A program made the translations under genes and the position numbers. This document shows, one piece after another, positions 1 to 36,146 of a stretch of 36,218 bases of DNA. Each line of letters begins with the position of its first letter. Positions within the stretch are counted from its first letter, which is position 1. The notes beneath the pieces were generated by a model. That model searched no databases, was not told the DNA's origin, and saw nothing but the letters and a program-made list of their open reading frames with translations. The DNA comes from a virus, in IMG/VR virus record IMGVR_UViG_3300045988_068382, positions 1 through 36,218 of that record; one strand, 5' to 3'.

Positions 1-119
1 ATGACCTGCGGGTTTACAAGGTCCTGAATGGTTGTTGTTTCTGCCATAGTTATTCTCCTTTTCTACCGGTCAGGGTGTCGTATGTGTCTTTGTCGGTCTT
101 GTACAAGTCCAGCCGCTGG
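1..119. repeat. Terminal direct repeat, copy 1 (identical to 36100-36218); consistent with circular assembly overlap or terminal redundancy
   Basis: Base-by-base comparison of the first 119 nt with the last 119 nt shows identity. It contains the 5' end of the capsid gene (start at 47 = 36146) and the scaffold stop codon (50-52 = 36149-36151). Confidence 0.95.
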
Positions 120-625
120 GCATAGGACATCTTTGCAAACGCATCAGCAGTGACCGCAGAGCCGCCGCTGTTGTCCGGCAGCTTCTGTTCCAGTATCTGC
201 TTTTTCTCTGCCGTCGCGAACTGCGTCGGATACTGGGATTTCAGCGTTTCCAGCGTGGTGTCCCAGCCTGTCAGTCTGCCCTTGTCGTCCAGAGCCACGC
301 CGTCCATGCCTTGCAGTTTGTACGCCAGATAGTCTGTGTCCAGTGCTCCCGCTTTCAGCAGTGCCACCTGCACCGCAGCGTCCAGTTTTGCCTTGGCAAG
401 CTCTGCTTCCAGTTCGGTGACGCGGGCGTTCTCCTGTGTCTGCTTGGCGGCGTTGTCTGCCCTGGTCTGCTTCTGGGCTTGCTTTAACGCGTCCTGTGCC
501 TGTTGCAGCTGTACTTGCAACGCATTGTACTCTTCCGCCGTGTAAGTCTTTTCCGGCGGTGACGCGTTCGGCTGCTGCTTTGTGCCTTCATCCGGCGTAT
601 CCTGTTTCTTTGCCTCTTCTGCCAT
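50..625 (-). CDS. Capsid scaffolding protein
   Basis: 191 aa, ATG at 625 with AAAGGA RBS. Acidic, Ala/Gln/Lys-rich and coiled-coil-like. Lies immediately upstream of the major capsid gene across the circular junction, with a 3-nt gap. Confidence 0.7.
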   Translation of the reverse strand: MAEEAKKQDTPDEGTKQQPNASPPEKTYTAEEYNALQVQLQQAQDALKQAQKQTRADNAAKQTQENARVTELEAELAKAKLDAAVQVALLKAGALDTDYLAYKLQGMDGVALDDKGRLTGWDTTLETLKSQYPTQFATAEKKQILEQKLPDNSGGSAVTADAFAKMSYAQRLDLYKTDKDTYDTLTGRKGE

Positions 626-653
626 TTGAATCAGTCCTTTCGTGATTTGGGTA

Positions 654-689
654 TAAAAATAGCACCTGATCGCTCAGATGCTGATTTTT
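654..689 (-). terminator. Terminator-like hairpin H2 between the 87-aa ORF and the scaffold gene
   Basis: Arms agcacctga (661-669) and tcagatgct (674-682), 9 bp with one G-U pair, flanked by an A5 run and a T5 run. Read on the minus strand, the stem is followed by AUUUUUAU. Confidence 0.4.
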
Positions 690-772
690 CGATAAAAGAA
701 CGCCGTACCCGCTGGCTGAATTGTTCTTGTTTTCCGCCCTCCGCCAGTTTTCGCCCATGGTCGGGGCGGTGA

Positions 773-1036
773 TTACAGTTCGATGTCTTCGATCGCTGCA
801 CGTACTTCCAAACTGGCGATATAGTCAGCCATCGCTCTAATCTGGAAATTATAGACACCTCTCGGACAGGTCGGCGTGAAATTCAGCTTTCCAGTGTCCC
901 ATTTGTCCAGCATTGCTTTCAGCTTCTGGTACCGGACAGCCACCTGTGCATACTCTGCCTTAAACCGTTCCTTGTAGTCATCACTGCACATCAGTGATAC
1001 TGTGTCTTTCAGTTCTGCCTGTCTGTATGTTGCCAT
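773..1036 (-). CDS. Hypothetical 87-aa protein inside the head module
   Basis: Internal ATG at 1036 (MATYRQAELK...) preceded by GAAAGGAGAAAATA. The longer 111-aa version in the ORF track lacks an RBS. Predicted helical. Bracketed by two similar hairpins. Confidence 0.6.
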   Translation of the reverse strand: MATYRQAELKDTVSLMCSDDYKERFKAEYAQVAVRYQKLKAMLDKWDTGKLNFTPTCPRGVYNFQIRAMADYIASLEVRAAIEDIEL

Positions 1037-1057
1037 TATTTTCTCCTTTCTGGCATG

Positions 1058-1086
1058 AAAAAAGCACCTCGGGTGAGATGCTTTTT
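1058..1086 (-). terminator. Terminator-like hairpin H1 downstream of the MuF cassette
   Basis: Arms agcacctc (1063-1070) and gagatgct (1075-1082) with one mismatch, flanked by an A6 run and a T5 run. On the minus strand the stem is directly followed by UUUUUU. It shares the AGCACCT...AGATGCT arms with H2. Confidence 0.45.
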
Positions 1087-1107
1087 CTGTATAAGATTTC
1101 GGAAACA

Positions 1108-1281
1108 CTATCGATTCTCCTCAAAGAAGAAACACGGTTTTCCACCGGTACGAATTGCCACTTTATTGATTTCTTTCGCTTTGCTTACGATTTCCTGTGG
1201 TGTGTTTTTTGAAAAGGTTCGTGTTTTTCCTTTTATCATATATTTACGCCATTCCATTGGATAATCAATCAGCATTTTCAT
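1108..1281 (-). CDS. Small 57-aa ORF overlapping the MuF stop codon; candidate cognate or immunity-like partner of the MuF C-terminal domain
   Basis: ATGAAAATG at 1281/1275 sits just after AAGGAGG and overlaps the MuF TGA (1265-1267). Lys-rich product MKMLIDYPMEWRKYMIKGK.... It shares the AT-rich composition of the MuF C-terminal region. Function unknown. Confidence 0.4.
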   Translation of the reverse strand: MKMLIDYPMEWRKYMIKGKTRTFSKNTPQEIVSKAKEINKVAIRTGGKPCFFFEENR

Positions 1282-2941
1282 TTCCTCCTTTGTGCAGCAA
1301 AGCTGCCACAACATCACGGGACATTTTTCTCGGCTTTTTGCTGCAATATTCTGCCACGCATTCTGAAATAAATTCGTCGAGCGATTCATCATCTATAAGT
1401 CCGTAAATGGACAGTGCTTCTTTTTTCAATTTCATTATAGCATCTTCGTCTAACCCTGTCAAGCTTTCAAAAAAAGCATCTCGAATGTCACGTACTTTTT
1501 TCAGTCTTTCCTCATAATCCGGAACAGTATCTTTCAAATGCTTTTGCAATGCATGACCAAGCTCATGGCGAAAAGCGTGATAAGGGGAGGAGCTTGACCA
1601 TTTCCCCGTTTTTTTCATTTCAGCAGCAACTTTTGAAATTGTATTTTTTCCTTCCTTACCGCCTGCCCCGAAAATTGAGAGTACGCCGCTGTTGTCATTA
1701 TAGTTTCCCCAGAATCCGTTATTCCCATACGGTTCTACCGAAACACTGCTTACGCTGGACATTTCCCCGAACTTTTGCGTAAAACGATCATACTCATCGG
1801 AAAATTCTCTCGCAAGCTGTGGCGTGATCTCTTTTGTTCCACTGGCCTTATCAAATGCGATACTGTAATTCCCTTTTAAGTACTTGATTTTCTCCGCCTG
1901 ATACGTCTTTCCCGTACCGCCGTTATCCTTTGGCGTAGGCGGTGTGACTTCTGCGGCGTGACCGTTGTGATGCGGTATCGTGACATCACGCTTTTCTGCT
2001 TCCTGCCGGATATATCCGGCACGGTATTCCGCGTAGGATTCACTGGAAACCTTCACAAGGGCTCTGTGCTGGTTGTCATACTTGTAATCGTCGTCGGCTC
2101 TGACCGCCCATCTGGGGCGGCTGTAGGCGTGACAGCGGCAGTTGATGTCCTCGGACGCAATGCCAAACTTACCGGGTGCCTGTGCCTTTCTGCCGTCTAC
2201 TTCAAAGGGTTCGTCCAGCTCACGGACCTGCCCGTCCAGCTGGACATGGTGCGGGCGTGTCTTTTTGTCCATGGTGCTGTCCCACTGCTTCACCAGATCT
2301 GCCCCCTGCTGCTTCGCCGTTCTGGCGGCTTCCAGTCTGGCGGCGTTGGCGATGCGGTTTCCCTCGGTGCGGACGATCAGCTTTGCCCGTCCCAGTGCCC
2401 CGCCACGCATAGTGGCATAGTTGCCGATCATTTTGCCGGTGATCTGGTTCGCCATGTCCCCGTAGCTTGCACCAGATGCAAAGCCAGCGGAAACAATATC
2501 GGTGATATGCTTTTTCAGTCCGGCAAAGTCCTCGCCGATGCTGTCATACAGCGGCTTTACAAGCTTCGTGTCGTTAACGGCAGCCTGACAGACCTTATCC
2601 TGCGGAATAGGCAGCGAGAGCCGCAGCCCGTCGCTTTGCAGTTCGTACAGCACCGCCGTGTGCCCTGTGAGATAGCAGTCCTGCAAGTACTCCTGCACGG
2701 TGCGGTACGTCTTGCTGTGCAGCTTTCCGAGAATGCGTTCCAGCTGCTTCTGCAAGCCCTGCTGAAGCGCTTTCTGGTAGGCAACAGCCTGCCGGTTTTC
2801 CACGTCAGTCCGTTCGTCCAGCTGCCGGAGCCTGTCCTTGACATCTTCCAGTGCTTTCTGATACGACCGTTCCAGCTGCTCCATGACTTTTTTCTCGGAA
2901 AGCAGCTCATACTGCGTGGTCTGCTTCTGTGCCGGTGTCAT
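1265..2941 (-). CDS. Head morphogenesis protein (MuF / SPP1 gp7 family) fused to a C-terminal HEXXH zincin-like domain
   Basis: MuF-type core RTEGNRIANAARLEAAR...TRPHHVQLDG...EDINCRCH. C-terminal extension of about 260 aa carries HELGH, encoded at 1553-1567. Position directly after the portal gene is typical. ATG at 2941 (MTPAQKQ) is preferred over the GTG at 2950. Confidence 0.85.
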   Translation of the reverse strand: MTPAQKQTTQYELLSEKKVMEQLERSYQKALEDVKDRLRQLDERTDVENRQAVAYQKALQQGLQKQLERILGKLHSKTYRTVQEYLQDCYLTGHTAVLYELQSDGLRLSLPIPQDKVCQAAVNDTKLVKPLYDSIGEDFAGLKKHITDIVSAGFASGASYGDMANQITGKMIGNYATMRGGALGRAKLIVRTEGNRIANAARLEAARTAKQQGADLVKQWDSTMDKKTRPHHVQLDGQVRELDEPFEVDGRKAQAPGKFGIASEDINCRCHAYSRPRWAVRADDDYKYDNQHRALVKVSSESYAEYRAGYIRQEAEKRDVTIPHHNGHAAEVTPPTPKDNGGTGKTYQAEKIKYLKGNYSIAFDKASGTKEITPQLAREFSDEYDRFTQKFGEMSSVSSVSVEPYGNNGFWGNYNDNSGVLSIFGAGGKEGKNTISKVAAEMKKTGKWSSSSPYHAFRHELGHALQKHLKDTVPDYEERLKKVRDIRDAFFESLTGLDEDAIMKLKKEALSIYGLIDDESLDEFISECVAEYCSKKPRKMSRDVVAALLHKGGNENAD

Positions 2942-4385
2942 CTGCCGCACCTTCTTCCAGCTGCTGCATCAGGCTGTCCAGCTGTGCACCGTCCGTCTGT
3001 TCCAGCGACTTCCGCACCTCTGCCTCGTCCAGTTCCAGCACCTTGCACAGCGGTTGCAAAACGGCTTCTACGCCCAGCTGTGCCGCCGCGGCAAGCAGCG
3101 TGCTGACCTTGGTCTGCACGGCAGCAGCTTCCGCACTGCCGATCGCCGCGTTGTCAGATTCGTTGGTGATACAGGTTCTTGTGAAGTCCATTTTCACGTC
3201 GGCACGGGTGAACGCCGTCCCTTTGTCCTTGTTGATCTGCTGCAGTACCACGTCGATGATGCCGTCCATCATCTGCCGCAGGTGCGTTTCCAGCTTGCCG
3301 CACTTGATGTCCAGCAGGGCGTACCGGGACTTGATGACCACGTTGGTGATGTTTCCGTCGCCGACCTGTGCGGCGTTGAAGCCCATGCCGAACTGATAGA
3401 TGTTCTCTTTGTCCAGTTCCAGCTTGACCTTGCGGGCTTCATAGGGCACTTCTACCGTTTTCATGTCCACGCCGCCGCCGTCCGCCGTGCCGATGACCTT
3501 CTTAGTCTTGATGTTCTGCATCAGTTCCGTCATATCCGTGCCGCCGTATCCGGACACAACTACCAGATATTCTGCCGCGTCCTGCAAATTGTTGGACAGC
3601 CCACAGGACATAAGATCGTAGTCATCGATCAGCGATTTCACCGGCTGCAGCCCCGAAACGCGTTCACGGTTGTTGTCGATGCGGAACCACGGCAAGAATC
3701 CCAGTCCCTCGAAATAGGTGTCATCTGTGTTCTGCTTCTTGTACAGCACATGGGGACGTGGATTCGGAATGCCGTTTTCTGCCGCGTCCAGCGTGATCGT
3801 TCCGCTGTCCACCTGAGTATACGTCCACGTCTGCGTGTCGTCCATGACAAGCACCTTGTACACCGTGTGCCCGTACATGTCTGTCCGCTGCGGATACCGG
3901 TACAGCACATAGTCCCTGCCGTCAGAAGTGTATCTGCCGTCTGCTTCCACCACAGACAACGCATCGGCACACTGGAACGCCAGCCTGCCGTCTGCGTTCA
4001 TATAGGCATACAGCCAGCCACAGCCGCAGACCACAGCATCTGTACAGGCATCTGCCAGTTCTGCCCGAAAGCGGTCGTTTTCGTTGAAGTAACTGTCCAT
4101 TTCCTTTTGCAGCTGTTCATCTTCGGCAACCACGATCCTGTCACGGTTGCTAAGCAGGTACTGGACTTCCTGATCTGCCAGTTCCGTGAAAAACGGGTGT
4201 GAGATCTTGATGTTGCTTCTGGTCTTGTCCTCTTGCAGCTCTCCGTGGGCATCATAGTAAAACAGGCGGTAGTTCTGTATCGCATGGCGGGCGTGGTAGT
4301 ACTGCCGCCCGATGCGTGCCTGTGCCTTTTGCGGATCCCCGTATGCTGTGTTCAGCAGCGTTTGTATTTCTCCGATGTGAAGCAT
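2907..4385 (-). CDS. Portal protein (SPP1 gp6-like)
   Basis: About 492 aa starting at ATG 4385, after GGAGGTGAAAGA. Lies between terL and MuF. Size and N-terminal pattern (YYHARHAIQNYRLFYYD, FFTELADQEVQYLL) fit SPP1-type portals. Confidence 0.88.
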   Translation of the reverse strand: MLHIGEIQTLLNTAYGDPQKAQARIGRQYYHARHAIQNYRLFYYDAHGELQEDKTRSNIKISHPFFTELADQEVQYLLSNRDRIVVAEDEQLQKEMDSYFNENDRFRAELADACTDAVVCGCGWLYAYMNADGRLAFQCADALSVVEADGRYTSDGRDYVLYRYPQRTDMYGHTVYKVLVMDDTQTWTYTQVDSGTITLDAAENGIPNPRPHVLYKKQNTDDTYFEGLGFLPWFRIDNNRERVSGLQPVKSLIDDYDLMSCGLSNNLQDAAEYLVVVSGYGGTDMTELMQNIKTKKVIGTADGGGVDMKTVEVPYEARKVKLELDKENIYQFGMGFNAAQVGDGNITNVVIKSRYALLDIKCGKLETHLRQMMDGIIDVVLQQINKDKGTAFTRADVKMDFTRTCITNESDNAAIGSAEAAAVQTKVSTLLAAAAQLGVEAVLQPLCKVLELDEAEVRKSLEQTDGAQLDSLMQQLEEGAADDTGTEADHAV

Positions 4386-4396
4386 TCTTTCACCTC

Positions 4397-5794
4397 CTAC
4401 ACAAGCCACATGCCGGGTGGCTTGGGGTTTTCATACACGCCGGTCAGAGCGTCCGGTGCGTCGTCGTGGGCGTTCTTTCCGGTACGCTGATACGACAGCA
4501 CCGCACCGGCAAAATCCCGCCAGCGGTCTGCCCAGTTCACCGGAAACAGCACGTTCTGCATCACGCCGGTGCTGTTGGACAGGATCCGTGCCACCTTGTT
4601 CTTGCTCTGGTGAAACCACGTCACATGGGTGTGCTGGTTTCCCATCGCCCTGCACTCCCGTTCCACGTTTCTGGCGAACCCTCTGCCGCCGTTGTTGGAT
4701 TCGATGATCGCACAGCCGATGTTGTGCTTTGTCAGCATCTGTGCAGTCTGTGGCTCGGTGGTTTCCATGGGTGCACTGGTATAGAGCACGTCCAGCACGT
4801 AGTACGTGCCGTTGTACACGCCGTAGCAGATGCTGCACAGGTAGTCGCTGCCCTCGTCTGCGGTATCCGTATAGCACAGCAGATACTGGAGCAGGGATTC
4901 CCCGTTCTCGTCCACCGGCAGCGTGGTGTAGGTCTGCATTCTGGTGTACAGTCTGCCCCTGATGTCCATGGGCTCCTGCTGATAGTTGGCGGCGGCGATC
5001 TCTTTTCCCATGGCACTCGTCTTTGCCAGATAAGACCTTTTGGTCAGCACGGCATCACAGAGCATTGTGCCGTCGTCCTGCAACGCTTTCATACAGACGT
5101 GCCGCATCTTTGCACCGGACTTTCGGTAGTGCTCCAACGCCCGCCCCGCGAGGTCGTCTGTCGCCCAGCGTGTCATGATGATAAGCAGCTTTCCGTTTTC
5201 CTCCAGACGGGACTGCATCGTATCCGTAAACCAAGCCCAGTGCTTTTCTTTCACCAGTTCGTTGTTGGCTTCTTCGGCGTTTTTGATGAGGTCATCGATA
5301 ATCATCAGCGATGCCCCAAAGCCGGTCGCCGTACCGGTGGGCGATGTGGCAAGGTAGTTGTTGTAGCCGCCCTCCAAGCTCCACAGGTTCATTGCCCCGT
5401 CGCCGTGCTTGATGCGGGTGTCGGGGAACACATCGGCGTACACCGGTATGTACAAGTCCGCCTTTTGCTCCATGATATCATTTCGCACATTCTTGGAAAA
5501 CATGGTGGAAAGCGTTTCGTTGTAAGAGCCTGTCATGATTTTCTGAGAGGGATCACGGCCGAGCACCCACTCCACCAGCAGACCGGCTGTTCTGGACTTG
5601 CCGTGACGGGGCGGGAGATTCACGATCATCACCTCGTCATCAGATTCCACGAACGCCTGAAACTCCCTGCACAGCCGCACAAGATACTGCCGGTCAGGCT
5701 GATAAAAGTCAGGTGCCATCAGGCTGCAATAGGCAAAAAAGTCACGCCTTGCCAGTTCCGCTTTCGCACCGAGCACGATCAGCCGCTTATCCAC
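4397..5794 (-). CDS. terL: Terminase large subunit
   Basis: 465 aa with a GTG start overlapping the terS stop. Walker A-like LPPRHGKS, Walker B-like MIIDDL, and a C-terminal nuclease-like region with acidic residues (TDTADEGSDY). Gene order is terS-terL-portal. Confidence 0.92.
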   Translation of the reverse strand: MDKRLIVLGAKAELARRDFFAYCSLMAPDFYQPDRQYLVRLCREFQAFVESDDEVMIVNLPPRHGKSRTAGLLVEWVLGRDPSQKIMTGSYNETLSTMFSKNVRNDIMEQKADLYIPVYADVFPDTRIKHGDGAMNLWSLEGGYNNYLATSPTGTATGFGASLMIIDDLIKNAEEANNELVKEKHWAWFTDTMQSRLEENGKLLIIMTRWATDDLAGRALEHYRKSGAKMRHVCMKALQDDGTMLCDAVLTKRSYLAKTSAMGKEIAAANYQQEPMDIRGRLYTRMQTYTTLPVDENGESLLQYLLCYTDTADEGSDYLCSICYGVYNGTYYVLDVLYTSAPMETTEPQTAQMLTKHNIGCAIIESNNGGRGFARNVERECRAMGNQHTHVTWFHQSKNKVARILSNSTGVMQNVLFPVNWADRWRDFAGAVLSYQRTGKNAHDDAPDALTGVYENPKPPGMWLV

Positions 5795-6170
5795 TGCCGA
5801 TCACTTTCCGCAGTTCTTCTGTGGTGAGTTCTGCAAACGGATTTTTCTGCACCGATGCCTCCACCTTTGTGGTGTACTCCCCCGTCATCTTGTTCAGCGT
5901 GTCCACGGCTCGGATACGGTCTGCGGCGGCGTTGTCCTCGCCCCTGGCGATGTCGGACAGCAGCTCCTGCCGGTCCCGTGCCGTCATGATGCGTGCGGTC
6001 TGGGCAGCTTCGGAAAGCTGTTTGATGTAGGCGGCAATCTCCACATTTCTCAACAATTCATCGGTTCGATGTGCAGCATAGCTTTCGCTGTATCCGGCTT
6101 TCCTCGCCGCATCAGCACCGTTTCCGCACTGATAGTAGTATTCCGCGAATTTTCGTTGGCGTTCGTTCAA
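5787..6170 (-). CDS. terS: Terminase small subunit
   Basis: N-terminus LNERQRKFAEYYYQCGNGADAARKAGYS is the classic terS HTH signature. Start is likely the TTG at 6170, 10 nt after AAGGAG. The ORF-track start at 6200 is also a TTG but has no RBS. Confidence 0.8.
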   Translation of the reverse strand: MNERQRKFAEYYYQCGNGADAARKAGYSESYAAHRTDELLRNVEIAAYIKQLSEAAQTARIMTARDRQELLSDIARGEDNAAADRIRAVDTLNKMTGEYTTKVEASVQKNPFAELTTEELRKVIGSG

Positions 6171-17710: not shown

Positions 17711-18544
17711 ATGAAATGTCCGTCATGTGGCAGTGAAAACGCTGCCGGAACAAAATTCTGTAGCCTGTGCGGCACAAAGCTTCCGTTGGACGGTGCTGAA
17801 CAGCCGACCACCGCACAGTCTGCACAGCAGCCCGTTCCGCCGACCCCGCAGCAGCCCAACAACACATATCAGAATGCTGCACCGCAGTACCAACAGTACC
17901 AGCAGTATCCACAACCGCCGAAGAAAGAACCGCTTAGCAAGCAGACTTGGTTTGTCGTGCTGATGCTCATTCTGGTGTGGCCCGTTGGTCTGATACTGAT
18001 GTGGTGCAATAAGAAAGAATGGAAGCTGCCTGTAAAAATCATCATCACTGCCTTTTTTGCCCTGATGCTTATCATCGGTGCCGTATCTGGCAGCGGCAGC
18101 AGTTCTTCTGACGATTCCAGTTCTTCCCCTGTTGTGACTACGACAGCAACCACAACGGAAGAAACCGAAAAAGCAACAGAGGCAGTCACAGCAGAACCGA
18201 CAGAGGCACCGACCGAAGCACCGACAACTCCCGTTCCCACAGAAGATCCCAATGTCACAATCGGCATGAAAAATGCACTGAAAACGGCACAAAGCTATTT
18301 GAACATTTCTGCATTTTCTTATACCGGATTGATCGACCAGTTGGAATACGAAAAATATTCTGTAGAAGAAGCAACCTACGCTGCTGACAACTGCGGAGCC
18401 GACTGGAATGAACAGGCGGCAAAATGTGCACAGAACTATATCGACCTTACTTCTTTCTCCCGCGACGGGCTAATCGACCAGCTTATCTATGAGGGCTTCA
18501 CACAGGAGCAGGCTGAATACGGTGCACAGGCAGTAGGGTATTAA
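17711..18544 (+). CDS. Ltp-family (superinfection-exclusion type) protein with an N-terminal zinc ribbon and membrane anchor
   Basis: N-terminus MKCPSCGSENAAGTKFCSLCG (zinc ribbon), a P/Q linker, and two hydrophobic helices (TWFVVLMLILVWPVGLILMW; IIITAFFALMLIIGAV). An S/T-rich linker follows, then two Ltp repeats (NALKTAQSYLNISAFSYTGLIDQLEYEKYSVEEATYAADN; AAKCAQNYIDLTSFSRDGLIDQLIYEGFTQEQAEYGAQAV). Confidence 0.85.
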   Translation: MKCPSCGSENAAGTKFCSLCGTKLPLDGAEQPTTAQSAQQPVPPTPQQPNNTYQNAAPQYQQYQQYPQPPKKEPLSKQTWFVVLMLILVWPVGLILMWCNKKEWKLPVKIIITAFFALMLIIGAVSGSGSSSSDDSSSSPVVTTTATTTEETEKATEAVTAEPTEAPTEAPTTPVPTEDPNVTIGMKNALKTAQSYLNISAFSYTGLIDQLEYEKYSVEEATYAADNCGADWNEQAAKCAQNYIDLTSFSRDGLIDQLIYEGFTQEQAEYGAQAVGY

Positions 18545-20257: not shown

Positions 20258-20758
20258 ATGGAAACAAAAGACATACTAAAATCACTGCGTAAGTCAAACG
20301 GATATTCTACAATGCAAGAATTTTGTGCTGCGGCAGATATCAGCTTTAGCACATACCAAAACTATGAGTCTGGAAAAAGAGTCCCAACTGCCGAGATACT
20401 TGTAAAACTCGCTGACTTTTACGGCGTCACCGCCGACTACCTCCTCGGCAGACCCGATGCAAAGCCGCCGGAAGAACCGCTGGACGAATTTGCTCGAAAA
20501 GAGCATTTAAAAAGTTTAGAAAAAGTGTTTATGAAAAAGTACTTAGCACTTACCGAGGAACAACGGGACAAGGTTCTGGATTTCTTACGCGGCGTTGTGG
20601 CGGAGGAAACTGCCGCACAAGCCTCAAAGCTGAAGATGTCCCGTGTGTACGAAGCTGCAAGGAGCAACGATCCGAACAACGCACCACACTTTGCAGAGTA
20701 CCCAGAGGAAGAGCTGAAAAAACTGGATGATGATCCGGACACAGACTTCGACCTATAA
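20258..20758 (+). CDS. XRE-family (cI / ImmR-like) repressor without an S24 peptidase domain
   Basis: N-terminal HTH LRKSNGYSTMQEFCAAADISFSTYQNYESGKRVPTAEILVKLADFYGVTADYLLGR. The C-terminal half is acidic and helical, with no Ser/Lys autocleavage motif recognised. Confidence 0.88.
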   Translation: METKDILKSLRKSNGYSTMQEFCAAADISFSTYQNYESGKRVPTAEILVKLADFYGVTADYLLGRPDAKPPEEPLDEFARKEHLKSLEKVFMKKYLALTEEQRDKVLDFLRGVVAEETAAQASKLKMSRVYEAARSNDPNNAPHFAEYPEEELKKLDDDPDTDFDL

Positions 20759-20801: not shown

Positions 20802-21362
20802 ATGAATTATGGTATTTATAAGGGTGCCAGAGATGCGAGCTGGCGTTGTCTGATTGACTGCAATATATCAGAGCTGCCGGTGAAACCGGTACAGATCGCG
20901 TGGCAATACGGCTTGACCTGTAAGGATAGTGCACGGTTTTTGCAGGTTGACGAAGCAGGCAAGATCATTCGGCGTAGCTCCGGAGATGTTCAGATACTTC
21001 TGCGACCAGATGCACCTGTTTCGGGAAAGCGGTTTACCGTTATGCATGAATTAGGGCATTATCTGCTTGGGCATCTGGGAGACGAGCCACTGTCCAGAAG
21101 CCAGAGCACCATCACACAGCCGGAAGAATATGCGGCAGAGCGTTTTGCCGTAGGTGTATTGATGCCTGCTTGTGTTCTGTGGGGCATTGGAGCATTTGAT
21201 GCGGAAACGATAGCCCGGCTTTGCAACGTGTCTCCAGAAGCTGCACAACGTCGTTCTGAACGACTTCGTCTCTTGCGAAAGAGGGGGAAATTTTTGACCA
21301 GCCCGTTGGAACAGCAGGTCTTTCAACAATTTAAGGATTTTATTGCCAAAAATAAAGGATAA
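20802..21362 (+). CDS. ImmA/IrrE-family zinc metalloprotease (anti-repressor protease)
   Basis: Contains VMHELGHYLLGH (HEXXH) and a downstream EEYAAERFAVGVLMP, typical of DUF955/ImmA. It lies immediately downstream of the XRE repressor. Confidence 0.88.
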   Translation: MNYGIYKGARDASWRCLIDCNISELPVKPVQIAWQYGLTCKDSARFLQVDEAGKIIRRSSGDVQILLRPDAPVSGKRFTVMHELGHYLLGHLGDEPLSRSQSTITQPEEYAAERFAVGVLMPACVLWGIGAFDAETIARLCNVSPEAAQRRSERLRLLRKRGKFLTSPLEQQVFQQFKDFIAKNKG

Positions 21363-21492
21363 CAAAAAACCGCCCCACGGCGGCAACCGTGAAGCGGCAA
21401 GAGGAAAAACTATTGCTGTAATAGCCCTCCAGAACAAGGTCTATTATAGCATATTTCCTCTGAAATTGCAAGTACAAGGAGGAAAAAATATC

Positions 21493-22986
21493 ATGCAGGC
21501 AGCAGCATATGCACGATACAGCACAGAGCATCAGACCGACAGCAGCATTGCCTATCAGATGCGGAAGATCGAGGAGTACTGCGATGCCCACGGCATCACC
21601 GTATCCGCCCGTTACGCCGACGAGGCAATGAGCGGCACCAACACACAGCGACCGGCGTTCCAGTCCCTCTGCCGAGATGCTGCACAGCGAAAATTCGATG
21701 CCGTTGTGATCTACGACATCAGCCGTGGCAGCCGTGACGTTTCCGACTGGTTCAGTTTCCGGAAACAGATGGCTCTGCTGCACATTCAGGTCATTTCCGT
21801 AGAGGATCACATCGGCGACATTCTCAACCCTGCCGACTATCTGACGGAGCTGATCACCGTGGGGCTGGGGCAGCATCACGTCCTCACCAGCCGCCAGAAG
21901 TCCATGGACAGCATCGCCACCAAGGCAAAGACCGGACAGTTTCTGGGCGGTACGCCCAACTTCGGCTACACCATTGACAAAAACGGCAGATATGTGATCC
22001 AGCCGGCAGAGGCGGAGATCGTCCGGACAATATACCAGATGTACGCCGCCGGCAAAAGCTACGGCGAAATCTTAGACACCATCGGCGAAGTACGGGGACG
22101 GCGTGGCAAGGTCATGGGCAAGAACAGCCTGCACTATCTGCTGCGGAACGAGCGGTACATCGGCGTGTACAGCTGGTGCAAGTATCACCACAAGATCATG
22201 GGCAAGTATGCCGGAAATATCCCCAACGAGAACGCTGTCCGCATCGAGGACAGCATTCCGGCAATCATCGACAAGGACACATGGGAGGCGGTTCAGATGC
22301 GTATGAATGACAAGAAACAGCGGGCGTGCAACAAGGCAAAGCGGAACTATCTGCTCTCCGGTCTGATCGAATGTACGGAGTGTGGTGCCAGCTATGTGGG
22401 GCATACGTCCACCAACAAGCGTGGCTATTCCACACGGTACTACTGCTGCGGCAACAAGTACCGGAACCACACCTGCCACGCCAAGAACATCAATGCGGAG
22501 GAGCTGGAGGCATTCGTGGTGCAGAATCTGAAGCACTACCTTGCAAACGTGGACTTTTCGCAGATGGCACAGCAGATCGCCGACGAGATCAACGGTGCTA
22601 CAACTGACCTGAAAGCGGAGCGGAAGGAGCTGGCGGACATCATCTTCCAGCTGAACAACGGCACCAAGGCGATCCTCAAAGGCATTGACTATCCGGAATT
22701 GCAGGAGGAAATGTTCCGGCTGCGTGTGCGGAAGTCGGAGCTGGAGGACATGATCCAGCGTGGTGCAGAGCATAATCCGGTCAGCGTGGAAAAGCTGGTG
22801 CAGCTGTTCCAGAACGCCATGGAGCGTCTGGACACCGACACCAAACAGGTGTGCAAGTCCATGGTAAAAATTTACGCCCACTCCAATGGTGACTGTGACC
22901 TTGAAGTAGGCGTACATATAAATGGTTGCGGGAGCCGTCAAACTATCCTATGTACAACTATACATTTCTGTAAAAAAACGGCGTGA
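21493..22986 (+). CDS. Large serine recombinase (integrase)
   Basis: ATG at 21493 after AAGGAGG. The resolvase catalytic N-terminus AAAYARYSTEHQ is followed by a recombinase domain (FGYTIDKNGRY...), a zinc ribbon (CTECGASY...YYCCGNKYRNHTCH) and a coiled coil. Confidence 0.92.
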   Translation: MQAAAYARYSTEHQTDSSIAYQMRKIEEYCDAHGITVSARYADEAMSGTNTQRPAFQSLCRDAAQRKFDAVVIYDISRGSRDVSDWFSFRKQMALLHIQVISVEDHIGDILNPADYLTELITVGLGQHHVLTSRQKSMDSIATKAKTGQFLGGTPNFGYTIDKNGRYVIQPAEAEIVRTIYQMYAAGKSYGEILDTIGEVRGRRGKVMGKNSLHYLLRNERYIGVYSWCKYHHKIMGKYAGNIPNENAVRIEDSIPAIIDKDTWEAVQMRMNDKKQRACNKAKRNYLLSGLIECTECGASYVGHTSTNKRGYSTRYYCCGNKYRNHTCHAKNINAEELEAFVVQNLKHYLANVDFSQMAQQIADEINGATTDLKAERKELADIIFQLNNGTKAILKGIDYPELQEEMFRLRVRKSELEDMIQRGAEHNPVSVEKLVQLFQNAMERLDTDTKQVCKSMVKIYAHSNGDCDLEVGVHINGCGSRQTILCTTIHFCKKTA

Positions 22987-23169: not shown

Positions 23170-23235
23170 TATAAATATTGCTATTTGATTCAGGACGGTG
23201 AAATAAATTTGGAAACATTATTATATCATTCTCCG

Positions 23236-24246
23236 ATGCTGGAGAAGAAACCTTACTGTTCCGCAACAGAACTCGTTGAAAAAATGGAAAGTAAAGGAAT
23301 TACATTTCAAATAATATCAAAAAGCGATGCTGAAAAATATCTAGTAGAAAAAAATAATTTTTTGAGATTATATGCGTATAGAAAAAATTTTCAAAAAGCA
23401 CGATTGGGCGAAAAGAAGGGTAAATATGTAAATCTCGATTTTTTTCATTTGAAAGCACTTGCAATTTTAGACTTGCAGCTTAGAAAGCAGATTTTTGGGA
23501 TTTGCGTCGACATAGAACATTGTCTGAAATTATCTCTTTTGAAAGACTTTGAAACAAGGGAACCAGAAGATGCGTATGCAATCGTCACTATTTTTTTAAA
23601 GAGTAACTCTTATACAGCAAATGACATTTTGCAAAAGGGCATTCAACGAAATGGTTACATAAGTGATTTGCTAGAAAAATACATTACAGAACGTGGGCAT
23701 TTAGATGATGAAGATGACGTGTATTATCACATATTTTACCAGAATGGCAAAGAAAAACAGTATCGTATCGATATGCCAATATGGGTTCTACTTGAATCCA
23801 TTACATTTGGCGGACTAATTCGCTTTTACAAATTTTATTATGAATATTATGAAAAAGATAGTCCCATTCCAATTAGACTGCTAAATAGCATAAAAAGTAT
23901 CCGTAATGCTTGTGCACATAACAATTGCATTTTGCATGATTTATCAAGAAACGAATGTCGCCCCCTTTCATTTGTCCGGACGTTTGTTTCAAAAAAAGGA
24001 TGCTCGAAATCGATGATTCAATCAAGATTGAAATGCCGAACACTGCATGAATTTGCAAGTGTATTGTATCTCGCTAATAAACGGTATGGAAATTCAACAT
24101 TTCTGCCAAAAGATATTTTACATCACGATTTAAAAGAAATACAAAGAGTTCTTGTGCGATTTGAACATAAATATTTAGGTCTGTTCCAGAAAAACGATAT
24201 AATACTTTCAAGTTTTCAATTTTTAAAGAAAATCGTTGACTTTTAA
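23236..24246 (+). CDS. Abi_2 family (AbiD/AbiD1/AbiF-like) abortive-infection protein, HEPN-type
   Basis: Contains LDLQLRKQIFGICVDIEHCLK, MPIWVLLESITFGGLIRFY and IKSIRNACAHNNCILHDL (Rx4H). The island is very AT-rich. Start is uncertain: ATG 23236, or TTG at 23218 or 23185. Confidence 0.85.
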   Translation: MLEKKPYCSATELVEKMESKGITFQIISKSDAEKYLVEKNNFLRLYAYRKNFQKARLGEKKGKYVNLDFFHLKALAILDLQLRKQIFGICVDIEHCLKLSLLKDFETREPEDAYAIVTIFLKSNSYTANDILQKGIQRNGYISDLLEKYITERGHLDDEDDVYYHIFYQNGKEKQYRIDMPIWVLLESITFGGLIRFYKFYYEYYEKDSPIPIRLLNSIKSIRNACAHNNCILHDLSRNECRPLSFVRTFVSKKGCSKSMIQSRLKCRTLHEFASVLYLANKRYGNSTFLPKDILHHDLKEIQRVLVRFEHKYLGLFQKNDIILSSFQFLKKIVDF

Positions 24247-35183: not shown

Positions 35184-36146
35184 TTACTTCTTGAACTTCG
35201 CCAGTACCACCTTGGAGGTGTCAGACAGTGCTACCGCATAGAACCGGTCTGCACTGATGTCTGTCTTTCTGGACAGGGTGTCGCGTTCTGTTTCCACGTT
35301 GGTGTCACGCTTCAGGTAAATGGTCAGTGCGGCAGTGTCGTCCTCGGTTTCGTCGTCCTGATTCAGCTTGACGATGGGGCAGAAGTAGCACGCCGTAGTG
35401 GACTTTGTGACCTTGTCGCCGACCTTTGCAGCGGGCAGGGTTTTCCGGATCTCCGCGATGTTCCCCTCAGCCGCCGCCGTGCCGCTTTCGTCAAAGTAAT
35501 ACCATTCGCTGTGCAGCGGCACTTTCTTTGACGGCACCACGCGGCAGTTTGCCACCATGCCGATTTCACCGGTCAGCATCACGCCGTTCTTGTACTTGTC
35601 CGCACTGAGGAAGTCGCTGTCTTTCCGCAGCTGTGTCACCTGCTTCGGGTGGACAAAGATAACCTTGTCCGTGTTCACTTCCTCGTCCAGCACGTCAATG
35701 GCGTCCACAATGCCGGCGTACTTGATCGCCGCCGCACTGCCGTCATAGGTCAGCTGTGCCCCCTGCAACGCAGCCATGGCATCGGCATCGACCTTCGCCG
35801 CGATGGACTTTCCGATCTGGTTATTGGTCTCTGCCACCGGATTGCCGTAGCCGGACAGCACGGATTCGTCTGTCAGTTCCACCGCTTTCATCGCTTTCTT
35901 GATCTTCACGGTGGTGGTGCTGGTCTGGAGCTTTACGGTGTCTGCCTTTACGCCCTCGGCAACGTCTACCGCATCGCCGATGTAGCTGTACTGCGGCACG
36001 GTGATCGTGTCACCCGGTACGCCCTGCAGGGTGGTGTCCACCTTTGCGAACGGGGTGACAACGATCTTGCTGGTGATCTTGGCGGAGATCATATCCGCCA
36101 TGACCTGCGGGTTTACAAGGTCCTGAATGGTTGTTGTTTCTGCCAT
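35184..36146 (-). CDS. Major capsid protein (HK97 fold)
   Basis: 320 aa. The N-terminus IQDLVNPQVMADMISAKI...PFAKVDTTLQGVPGDTITVPQYSYIGDA resembles the N4-gp56/HK97-like capsid family. It follows the scaffold gene across the junction and has an AAAGGAG RBS. Confidence 0.9.
   Translation of the reverse strand: MAETTTIQDLVNPQVMADMISAKITSKIVVTPFAKVDTTLQGVPGDTITVPQYSYIGDAVDVAEGVKADTVKLQTSTTTVKIKKAMKAVELTDESVLSGYGNPVAETNNQIGKSIAAKVDADAMAALQGAQLTYDGSAAAIKYAGIVDAIDVLDEEVNTDKVIFVHPKQVTQLRKDSDFLSADKYKNGVMLTGEIGMVANCRVVPSKKVPLHSEWYYFDESGTAAAEGNIAEIRKTLPAAKVGDKVTKSTTACYFCPIVKLNQDDETEDDTAALTIYLKRDTNVETERDTLSRKTDISADRFYAVALSDTSKVVLAKFKK

Follow-up and report, generated by a model that had tools for sequence, protein, structure and literature searches.

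The locus examined here raises two linked questions: what a HEXXH-bearing domain is doing at the C-terminus of a phage head-morphogenesis protein, and what is contributed by the small reading frame that overlaps the end of its gene. The window, by which we mean the whole 36,218-nt stretch of viral DNA analysed, belongs to a temperate siphovirus of Ruminococcus/Oscillospiraceae from the gut; it encodes a large serine recombinase, an XRE repressor and an ImmA/IrrE protein as genes of a temperate lifestyle, its relatives are embedded in Ruminococcus/Oscillospiraceae genome contigs of up to 615 kb, and a megablast search of nt 1-6000 against GenBank phages returned no close relative. The head gene in question is preceded directly by an SPP1-type portal gene (2907-4409, minus strand), which overlaps its start at 2950, and is organized as follows.

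1265..2950, minus strand: MuF-zincin fusion gene, 561 aa, with MuF/gp7 domain, conserved linker and predicted C-terminal zincin domain
2126..2509, minus strand: MuF / SPP1 gp7 head-morphogenesis domain, aa 148-275 (Pfam PF04233, Phage_Mu_F; TIGR01641)
1886..1960, minus strand: conserved pre-cassette linker (...EVTPPTPKDNGGTGKTYQAEKI), recombination junction, placed by homology comparison
1268..1885, minus strand: variable C-terminal domain, predicted lethal-factor-like gluzincin, AT-rich, aa 356-561, 206 aa

The Phage_Mu_F match to aa 148-275 (E 3.9e-17; score 63.4 bits, cut-off 29.6) locates the core where the initial annotation had put it, at about aa 150-280. The extension, which that annotation took to be about 260 aa long, is shorter than proposed: residues 290-355 are a conserved MuF linker and the variable domain spans only about 206 aa (aa 356-561). 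DNA homology to siblings with other cassettes stops at nt 1885/1886; at two such loci (L063 and L067) an identity of about 95% ends at nt 1885 and restarts at the hairpin described below, at 1089 or 1065. With L005, which combines a different MuF core with the same cassette, homology begins at 1960. The AT-richness ascribed to the extension and the small ORF is plain from their composition, with a GC content of 0.415 for the zincin part, 0.362 for the small ORF and 0.577 for the MuF core, and GC3 values of 0.38, 0.35 and 0.70 in the same order.

What lies beyond the linker is, moreover, exchanged wholesale. On MuF cores that are 92-97% identical in protein (and about 95% identical in DNA where measured), at least nine alternative C-terminal modules are found, among them Ntox50, two JAB-like HNHP domains and two other HEXXH domains; each brings its own, different small ORF, and the small ORFs of these other cassettes on the same core are mutually unrelated. 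The same cassette (96% aa identity) is also found on a MuF core of only 30% aa identity, and the same zincin is joined to PF06152-type and other cores as well. Short MuF genes without an extension occur in genomes that are otherwise related and of similar size (L075-77), and relatives at 79% core identity have no C-terminal extension. The C-terminus and the small ORF, suspected from the outset of swapping as a unit among related phages, do so, with the break at nt 1885/1886: aa 356-561 and the small ORF together constitute an exchangeable, horizontally acquired cassette.

This exchange bears directly on the possibility that the zincin works in morphogenesis or self-processing, cutting scaffold, capsid or MuF in the prohead or trimming MuF around packaging and leaving the infected cell alone, with the small ORF encoding an assembly chaperone. 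Such a role would accord with the match of PHROG 595, labelled 'head maturation protease', to aa 1-468 of the MuF protein, with the portal-to-scaffold (PF06810) interval of the window, in which no separate prohead protease gene is found, and with the proposal by Iyer et al. (PMC5512222) that zincin-like MPTases act autoproteolytically in packaged polyvalent proteins. Phages about 95% identical in terminase, portal and MuF-core DNA nevertheless carry Ntox50, JAB-like or unrelated domains in its place, and the relatives at 79% core identity do without any; because the zincin is replaced or missing in phages with closely related head genes, it is not required for head maturation, and the swapping rules out the function named by the PHROG 595 label. 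A promoter and terminator serving the partner gene, as well as an orphan pair outside any phage (both described below), would likewise be unexpected for an assembly factor, and SPP1-type heads use a scaffold and are not known to involve a protease. We therefore regard a morphogenetic function as quite improbable and turn to the domain as an exchangeable effector, whose candidate active-site elements are the following.

1553..1567, minus strand: HELGH, predicted catalytic HEXXH (H462, E463, H466; aa 462-466), invariant in the family
1400..1414, minus strand: LSIYG (S514 and Y516 invariant), aligning with SYG of anthrax lethal factor
1346..1375, minus strand: EFISECVAEY helix with candidate third zinc ligand, ExxxE (E526 and E530 invariant, E534 at least 90% conserved)

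The HELGH reported at 1553-1567 is present, at aa 462-466. By chance a single HEXXH would be unremarkable in a protein of this size, but the motif is present in 151 of the 152 family members; the zincin domain is found at the extreme C-terminus throughout these 152, and the family as a whole numbers about 300 representative clusters. Even where members have diverged to about 25% identity, the H, E and H of HEXXH, the S/Y pair and the glutamates of ExxxE show little or no variation. In anthrax lethal factor the SYG motif carries the catalytic Tyr. An AF2 model of the C-terminal region (pLDDT 85.5, pTM 0.82) sets HELGH within helix 124-141 and both E530 and E534 on helix 190-201, and its top 50 Foldseek neighbours in the PDB are all gluzincins (M1, M61, lethal factor and collagenase), the best match being weak (E 1.9e-3, TMq 0.28). 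Neighbours in BFVD, found at a probability of 1.0, are phage minor-capsid/head-morphogenesis proteins and entries named 'Lethal factor'/M34. A profile search of the PDB gave lethal factor 2l0r_A as its sole relevant match, which falls below significance (E 0.37) and whose alignment brings HExGH, SxYG and EFxAE into register with the domain; sequence searches of the PDB with the single protein and with alignment A1 produced only Kelch-repeat matches to the GAGGK...WS segment, which were dismissed as repeat-summed noise. Against Pfam no family reaches its cut-off, the metallopeptidase matches all being sub-threshold and ATLF not being matched. The structural neighbours of the domain are zincins throughout, with weak PDB scores, and the model points to aa 356-561 being a zincin outside every Pfam family, whose closest fold, to judge from those weak scores, is anthrax-lethal-factor-like.

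Weak matches to solved zincins, together with the lack of experimental work on MuF metallopeptidases (PMC11699363), could also be read as signs of a zincin-like module that has decayed and lost catalysis, serving the capsid structurally or by binding DNA, accompanied by a small ORF and a promoter-like motif that are both functionless. It would then be hard to see why the HEXXH, S/Y and ExxxE residues should stay (nearly) invariant as the family diverges to about 25% identity, why the small ORF should be conserved over that same range, or why the promoter should be preserved at the codon level beyond any protein constraint (see below), and we give this reading very little credence. A catalytic zincin remains the reading preferred here. 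The likeness drawn by the initial annotation between the domain and the ImmA/IrrE protease encoded at 20802-21362 does not extend past their common HELGH string. Anti-repressor proteases of the ImmA/IrrE type (Peptidase_M78) are zincins too and read HELGH too, but specific homology to the MuF-zincin domain was not detected: PF06114 (Peptidase_M78) matches neither the MuF protein nor its relatives, hhalign assigns a probability of only 36% to a relation, consequently discarded, with the window's own M78 protein, and those BFVD neighbours that are IrrE-like come no higher than 22nd and 47th place.

The reading frame that adjoins the domain has the following features.

1108..1275, minus strand: small partner ORF, putative immunity/inhibitor protein, 55 aa from ATG 1275 (57 aa from ATG 1281)
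1284..1290, minus strand: Shine-Dalgarno sequence AAGGAGG of the small ORF, within the last MuF codons

The frame had been described as a 57-aa ORF that follows AAGGAGG and overlaps the MuF stop. The ribosome-binding site and the overlap both stand, the latter with either candidate start in relation to the stop codon at 1265-1267, but the start itself is likely to be ATG 1275, giving 55 aa; ATG 1281 is just 2 nt from AAGGAGG, whereas ATG 1275 is separated from it by 8 nt and is the one chosen by most gene callers in other assemblies. Of 80 zincin loci, 78 have a member of the same small-ORF family immediately downstream and a 79th has one fused to the zincin, while none is found at the 37 loci that lack the zincin, and the small ORF is conserved across the same divergence range as the domain it follows. 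A zincin and small-ORF pair also exists as an orphan outside any phage, adjoining a Phd/YefM-like gene. By this co-occurrence the 55-aa protein is a specific partner of the zincin. Searches of NCBIfam, Pfam and PHROGs with the small ORF matched nothing, and from its context the product is most likely a stoichiometric inhibitor or immunity protein.

Strict linkage would also be expected if the zincin were delivered and active but depended on the small protein as an obligatory cofactor, activator, chaperone subunit or targeting adaptor. A natural in-frame fusion of the two (P0007/L004), in whose AF2 model the small-ORF part is folded (pLDDT 78-92), fits this equally well, and linkage and fusion together indicate a physical association that is consistent with activation or inhibition alike. 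The fusion is, however, seen on just one contig, 4.8 kb long, where one base sets it apart from the arrangement with overlapping ORFs, and adding the small ORF to the model brings no gain: a PDB search with the fused protein retrieves the same zincins with weaker scores and no better likeness to a known zincin fold, which leaves unsupported the idea that the small ORF completes that fold. Furthermore, mutually unrelated small ORFs on the same core are the pattern that the MuF-toxin survey associates with toxin-specific immunity (PMC5576092), and a cofactor would have no need for a consensus promoter that is independent of the late operon and located downstream of the catalytic motif. A cofactor role is, in our assessment, unlikely, and inhibition or immunity continues to be the favored function. 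The promoter just mentioned is found inside the protease gene.

1434..1462, minus strand: sigma-70-type promoter TTGACA-17-(TGC)TATAAT, predicted, within the zincin coding sequence and directed towards the small ORF

It matches the consensus at 12/12 positions, with an extended -10 (TG) in addition, and is kept at the DNA level in 16 sequence variants, seen in 22 loci plus the window (23 sequences), where protein identity falls as low as about 41%. Within it, Leu is always encoded by TTG (22% elsewhere) and Thr always by ACA (42% elsewhere), and the third -10 codon is always ANA and hence specifies I, T, K or R, so that the encoded peptide varies; as the promoter is retained codon by codon while the peptide changes, protein constraint cannot explain its conservation. 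The motif is absent from a distant zincin branch (L013-L062; domain identity 32-39%) in which the small ORF is still kept, and it was not found upstream of the small ORFs in most other cassettes, which have a promoter-like TTGACT-17-TGGTATAAT at the LTSGxDxGII junction. Because it lies downstream of the catalytic HEXXH, it would express the small ORF only and no toxic fragment. New here is the presence, inside the coding sequence of the protease, of a predicted promoter for its partner gene, the conservation of which is directly evident and the activity of which is suggested by its match to the consensus; in the literature consulted, we found no description of an immunity-gene promoter embedded in a MuF toxin coding sequence.

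The opposite end of the putative transcript, and the gene that follows, are defined by two further elements.

1058..1087, minus strand: intrinsic-terminator-like hairpin (A-tract, 7-bp GC-containing stem, U-tract), 3' edge of the cassette slot
773..1036, minus strand: next gene, homologue of the Sequestin-family (PF21825) anti-Thoeris sponge, second swap slot

Folding of the hairpin yields a 13-bp stem with A and U tracts (dG -16.3 kcal/mol, z = -3.5), and the programmed terminator scan did not list it. The proposal that the unit ends at a hairpin was right as to its position but not as to its meaning, since the same hairpin is found in sibling loci whatever their cassette, and in those without one; it is a conserved backbone element, which rules it out as a cassette-specific end. 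In sibling phages the second slot is occupied by a Tad2-like gene.

In light of these results we consider it likely that the locus represents a MuF-family polymorphic effector, composed of a capsid anchor, a delivered zinc metallopeptidase and a small partner. An exchangeable effector with a small cognate gene on a MuF anchor, in the manner of polymorphic toxins, was the core of the initial annotation, and the swapping, the occurrence on a core of 30% identity, the strict co-occurrence of the small ORF and the confident zincin-like model all speak for it. In SPP1, the portal targets gp7 to the procapsid and gp7 supports the start of infection (PMC6316719); by analogy, aa 1-355 would serve as a capsid-targeting anchor that is portal-bound, present in few copies in the head and active early in infection. 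Packaging and injection of the fusion protein would follow from the same analogy, with aa 356-561 traveling with the DNA and cutting at least one protein of the cell just entered, a catalytic role that we infer from the sequence of the domain; XRE-type repressors and defence proteins had been put forward by the initial annotation as speculative targets. Two routes could supply the small protein. Coupled to translation of MuF while the late genes are expressed, its synthesis would hold the protease in check within the producing cell. Transcribed from the embedded promoter as far as the downstream terminator, its gene would provide the antidote to a lysogen, or to a cell only just infected, while the late operon is silent.

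A more far-reaching interpretation, which we offer tentatively and hold to be somewhat doubtful, is that the cassette forms an autonomous unit of promoter, antidote and terminator within the late operon and acts as a timed 'hit, then neutralise' effector. As the DNA enters, a lethal-factor-like protease brought by the virion would cut a regulatory or defence protein of the host, and straight afterwards the genome that has just come in, or one already resident, would make the 55-aa inhibitor from a regulator-independent consensus promoter. Lysogens would be immune to the protease of sibling virions, which would amount to phage-borne kin discrimination. Peptidase-type MuF warheads would by extension be anti-defence proteases and not killing toxins, and the portal-to-scaffold gap would be a counter-defence island, as suggested by the anti-Thoeris sponge slot (Sequestin or Tad2) that adjoins the cassette.

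Among MuF toxins only two enzymatic types have been studied, those of Apk2, a (p)ppApp synthetase, and Bxa, an ADP-ribosyltransferase, and in the metallopeptidase fifth neither a protein nor its substrate or immunity factor has been characterised. The locus described here delimits a compact family of zincins, whose 55-aa partner is strictly linked to them and for which sibling phages carrying other cassettes or none provide natural controls. Its embedded promoter offers both a hypothesis for the tie between MuF toxins and lysogeny, in which the antidote would be expressed when the late genes are off, and an example of a transcription signal constraining a coding sequence. Should the protease prove to hit a defence or regulatory protein, it would be a counter-defence effector of a new type, delivered in the virion by abundant phages of gut Firmicutes.

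Taken as a whole, the locus is best placed in the known class of MuF polymorphic toxins, as an uncharacterised member. The survey by Jamet et al. (2017, PMC5576092) delimits that class by a PF04233 or PF06152 superfamily domain and a downstream ORF of <150 aa, and reports a metallopeptidase domain in 20% of its members; as in the toxins it describes, we find here an N-terminal MuF domain, a gene right after the portal, a hypervariable C-terminal domain with a small downstream ORF specific to it, and a temperate phage, with the difference that the present C-terminal domain matches no Pfam family. In the text of that survey neither 'recombination' nor 'GC content' occurs. Outside the MuF class, one parallel is anthrax lethal factor (MEROPS M34), which has the gluzincin layout predicted here, with HExGH, S-x-Y-G and E-F-x-A/S-E in the same order, and which is represented both by its own chains among the Foldseek neighbours and by phage 'Lethal factor'/M34 proteins among those in BFVD. 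This similarity nonetheless falls short of significance (E 0.37; TMq about 0.3), a longer segment separates the two motifs in the zincin family, and the family's invariant glutamate corresponds to E739 of lethal factor and not to the ligand E735, so that the register of the third ligand is uncertain. The Tox-ALFMetallopeptidase domain of polymorphic toxins is listed by Zhang et al. (2012, PMC3482391) with PVC and type II secretion delivery and with Imm-SuFu immunity, and not with MuF. The zincin-like MPTases of polyvalent proteins (Iyer et al. 2017, PMC5512222), joined to lethal factor through profile searches, likewise combine a HEXXH helix with a Glu helix, are fused to virion-packaged proteins that include MuF, and are predicted to be delivered with the DNA. 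Polyvalent proteins are, however, giant and multi-effector, whereas MuF-zincin is a two-domain protein, and its locus has a dedicated small partner gene with its own predicted promoter and a terminator, an arrangement not described for them.

For the placement of the promoter itself, precedents come from other toxins. Colicin genes contain constitutive immunity promoters. Internal promoters have also been reported in the Rhs toxin genes of Salmonella (PMC7043789), where a promoter within the toxin ORF allows the immunity gene behind it to be expressed without the main operon; the predicted MuF-zincin promoter differs in being situated downstream of the HEXXH and within a phage late structural operon.

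A head-morphogenesis operon in SPP1 gene order occupies the (−) strand of the window, and the XRE repressor, ImmA/IrrE protease and large serine recombinase of a lysogeny module mark the phage as temperate:

Features of the window
4397-5794 (−), large terminase
2907-4409 (−), SPP1-type portal (PF05133, E 4.7e-54)
1265-2950 (−), MuF-zincin ORF, 561 aa
1108-1275/1281 (−), small ORF
1058-1087 (−), hairpin between the small ORF and the PF21825 gene
773-1036 (−), PF21825 gene, 87 aa
50-625 (−), scaffold gene (PF06810)
35187-36146, major capsid gene
20258-20755, XRE repressor, lysogeny module
20802-21359, ImmA/IrrE protease, lysogeny module
21343-22983, large serine recombinase, lysogeny module

Relatives of the C-terminal domain come from genome contigs of Ruminococcus, other Oscillospiraceae and Clostridia, of gut and rumen origin; a megablast of nt 1-6000 found no close relative of the window among GenBank phages. 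Directly after the serine recombinase, in the AT-richest part of the window (GC about 0.31), lies an Abi_2 (abortive-infection-like) gene (23185-24243, +), a probable defence gene of the moron type with expression from the prophage, and 17711-18541 (+) encodes a zinc-ribbon with two Ltp repeats (PF07553, host cell surface-exposed lipoprotein), likely a superinfection-exclusion protein.

The initial annotation had described a MuF head protein fused to a HELGH effector and followed by a small cognate ORF, and every sequence feature it listed is found in the window. Phage_Mu_F matches aa 148-275, HELGH occupies aa 462-466 (nt 1553-1567), and the C-terminal part and small ORF have lower GC (0.415 and 0.362, against 0.577 for the MuF core) and lower GC3 (0.38 and 0.35, against 0.70). 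An AAGGAGG at 1284-1290 precedes two ATGs, both overlapping the MuF stop (1265-1267): a mere 2 nt separates it from the ATG at 1281, while the ATG at 1275, 8 nt away, opens a 55-aa frame and is the start commonest among calls in other assemblies. A 13-bp stem, its A and U tracts counted in, forms the hairpin at 1058-1087 (ΔG −16.3 kcal/mol, z = −3.5).

A protein search with aa 301-561 recovered a domain of about 200 aa carried on several N-termini, namely PF04233 MuF cores, PF06152 (Phage_min_cap2) cores and others ending in an HxNCxC motif, as well as standing by itself, unfused; two hits (P0035, P0037) carry the window's MuF core with another C-terminus beginning directly after GGTGKTYxxEKI. 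Loci coding for the core itself were fetched, and among phages whose cores are 92-97% identical in protein many forms occur past this junction:

C-terminal modules on window-type MuF cores, by fetched locus
L073: the window's zincin
L063, L064: a second HELGH domain
L079: a HESAH domain
L066 and L071; L068: two JAB-like HNHP domains
L067, L001: Ntox50
L065; L070 and L074: two different uncharacterised domains
L072, L078: two related 'GEHAHDY' domains

Directly 3' of each module lies a small ORF, unrelated from module to module, and in three relatives with a core identity of 79%, one of them a 36.5-kb contig of the window's size, the MuF protein ends at aa 355-358 without extension. Between nt 6000 and 1885 the DNA of L063 and L067 has about 95% identity with that of the window; at exactly 1885 all similarity ends, and it returns at 1089 or 1065. 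In a further locus, L005, the situation is reversed: similarity to the window is confined to nt 1960-635 (94%), its MuF core being 30% identical in protein, its cassette 96% and its small ORF identical. C-terminal domain and small ORF thus travel together, as a single block of roughly 0.8 kb (about 1090-1885 in the window); this comparison of related phages is the one that the initial annotation had proposed. The same exchanges contradict a role of the zincin as a head-maturation or self-processing protease, for which the PHROG 595 label on the MuF-zincin protein and Iyer et al. could be cited: the domain is replaced or absent in phages with nearly identical head genes. As a separate observation, three ENA contigs (L001-L003) hold an N-terminally shortened MuF-Ntox50 gene, its 61-aa ORF and a sponge gene between a Transposase_mut gene on one side and host MatE and AraC genes on the other, which looks like a prophage remnant with its toxin cassette retained.

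The AlphaFold2 model of aa 335-561, built from a 32-sequence alignment, is confident (pLDDT 85.5, pTM 0.82) and comprises a small beta sheet, the HELGH-bearing helix and more helices, one of them with EFISECVAEY. All 50 of the 50 best Foldseek neighbours in the PDB are gluzincin catalytic domains, among them M1 and M61 aminopeptidases, anthrax lethal factor and collagenases G and H, at weak scores (best E 1.9e-3, TMq ≤0.35). The BFVD ranking is headed by further phage proteins named 'minor capsid' or 'head morphogenesis' (E 4.6e-6, TMq 0.54), followed by proteins labelled 'Lethal factor', 'endopeptidase family M34', 'Matrixin' and 'SprT-like', with IrrE-like proteins at ranks 22 and 47. For XRE repressors, a target class suggested in the initial annotation, the sole support is the HELGH string common to the window's ImmA/IrrE (MHELGH), to which the MuF-zincin has an hhalign probability of 36%. 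No Pfam family reaches its cut-off in members of the zincin domain; recurrent sub-threshold matches include metallopeptidases (DUF4344, Reprolysin_3/4/5, WLM, M90) along with unrelated families such as PDCD7 and vATP-synt_E. Searched with a profile, 1.84 billion representative proteins yielded 301 clusters at E ≤1e-3; in the 152 near-complete members the domain sits at the extreme C-terminus (median 0 residues beyond) and HEXXH is present in 151. Scored over members down to about 25% identity and numbered on the full protein, W451, S452, H458, H462, E463, H466, S514, Y516, E530 and A533 are invariant and conservation of R461 and E534 is 90% or higher, so that a dead domain is unlikely. Only two PDB sequences match the member profile, both sub-threshold; of these, lethal factor (2l0r_A, E 0.37) makes biological sense, and its alignment pairs HExGH, S-x-Y-G and E-F-x-A-E, in lethal factor the zinc-binding histidines, catalytic tyrosine and Glu-helix. 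From neighbours, conserved residues and this alignment we call the domain a putative lethal-factor-like gluzincin from an as yet uncurated family, its kinship with lethal factor being suggestive.

In nearly all loci the small ORFs (54-64 aa) have their start only a few bases from the end of the zincin gene, and even at 33% zincin identity they can be aligned through the conserved core D-[AT]-P-x-E-I-x-x-[EK]-[AV]-[KR]. Their HMM matches directly 3' of the zincin in 78 of 80 loci and gives no match in 37 fetched loci without zincin, which marks the small ORF as a real partner dedicated to this zincin. One locus beyond these 78, L004 (a single short contig of GCA_037193465.1), encodes zincin and small ORF as one 328-aa ORF (3014-4000); this in-frame fusion, also protein P0007, differs from the overlapping ORFs by one base, GATGATATG in place of GATGATAATG, and shows the association of the two. 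In an AF2 model of this natural fusion the small-ORF part reaches pLDDT 78-92, with no readable interface and no improvement of the fold match. L004 encodes a non-MuF N-terminus and has holin and XhlA genes upstream, on the opposite strand; the locus is a prophage that was rearranged or else an artefact of assembly. An orphan pair, a 212-aa zincin without MuF and a 61-aa partner (L110, 3884-4704), lies in non-phage chromosomal surroundings on a 78.6-kb contig of an Oscillospiraceae MAG, flanked by a metabolic gene and a Phd/YefM-like antitoxin gene, and retains the embedded TTGACA-17-TATAAT promoter. Such orphan modules are usual for toxin-immunity systems.

In the window, a consensus scan places this predicted promoter, TTGACA-17 nt-TATAAT with an extended −10 TG (12/12 matches), on the coding strand at 1462-1434, 3' of HELGH and 152 nt 5' of the small ORF; among random 350-nt windows drawn from the fetched loci a 12/12 score is reached by only 0.5%, a fraction that includes some windows with this very element. 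It is kept at the DNA level in 16 distinct variants among 23 sequences (the window and 22 loci) and also in L004, at protein identities as low as about 41% and across different MuF cores, and was not found in the more distant zincin branch (identity 32-39%). Selection appears to act on the DNA motif and not on the protein, since the peptide between the hexamers varies freely (GLDEDA, NLDKGA, KISESD, NADGSV and others) while the Leu codon is always TTG (22% of Leu codons elsewhere in these domains), the Thr codon always ACA (42% elsewhere), the TG always retained and the third −10 codon always ANA (I, T, K or R), with ATT in L008 the exception. From the −10 end to the zincin stop there are 142-172 nt in all variants. 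The conserved hairpin varies in its loop among loci and is also present at loci without the cassette; a replacement hairpin occurs as well, in which G·U wobbles in one of L067 and L001 are Watson-Crick pairs in the other. Embedded promoter and 3' terminator-like hairpin together lead us to infer that the small ORF forms its own predicted transcription unit inside the late operon. Internal promoters have precedent in colicin operons. They are also described in Rhs toxin genes (PMC7043789).

Other cassettes on the window-type core (L065-L079) carry TTGACT-17-(TGG)TATAAT, an 11/12 extended −10 promoter match encoding the conserved junction peptide LTSGxDxGII; it follows directly on the MuF core, where the variable region begins (in L065, for instance, 315 nt before the MuF stop), and 'LT-x6-II' is how a sigma-70 promoter translates in that frame. 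Given the close relationship of these loci, the conservation does not count as independent evidence. Many sibling loci (L063, L065, L076-L079), cassette-less ones among them, have a second conserved inverted repeat, TCTCAAAA-N7/8-TTTTGAGA, about 25 nt upstream of the terminator hairpin; it is absent from the window.

Building on the observed architecture, cassette mobility, strict partner linkage and conservation of catalytic motifs and promoter, we propose that the MuF part carries the zincin into the head and then into the next cell, where, judging by its signature, it would cleave a protein. By context and the MuF-toxin literature (PMC5576092, PMC11699363), the 55-aa protein would act by binding and blocking the protease. 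Late in infection its synthesis would be translationally coupled to that of the MuF protein; in lysogens, or just after DNA entry, it would be expressed on its own from the embedded promoter. A cofactor role for this protein is less probable than an inhibitor role, as it squares less well with an independent promoter and poorly with the unrelated small ORFs found beside unrelated warheads.

The gene after the cassette (window 773-1036, −; L001 5391-5654) belongs to PF21825, named Sequestin in 2025, which sponges 3'cADPR and blocks type I Thoeris (bioRxiv 10.1101/2025.07.12.664507). In sibling phages a Tad2-like (PF11195) gene replaces it, between the conserved hairpin plus CTTTTTTCATGCCnGAAAGGAGA on one side and the scaffold gene on the other (loci concerned: window, L001, L075-L077, L079); this position is a second swap slot, for anti-defence sponges, adjoining the MuF warhead.

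The class of system is already known: MuF is in the list of toxin-delivery routes of Zhang et al. 2012, MuF toxins were defined by Jamet et al. 2017, with metallopeptidase domains in 20%, and lethal-factor-like MPTases in packaged phage proteins were described by Iyer et al. 2017. New here are the window's zincin and partner families, both outside Pfam, the exact boundaries of the cassette and a predicted promoter conserved at the codon level within a putative toxin coding sequence.
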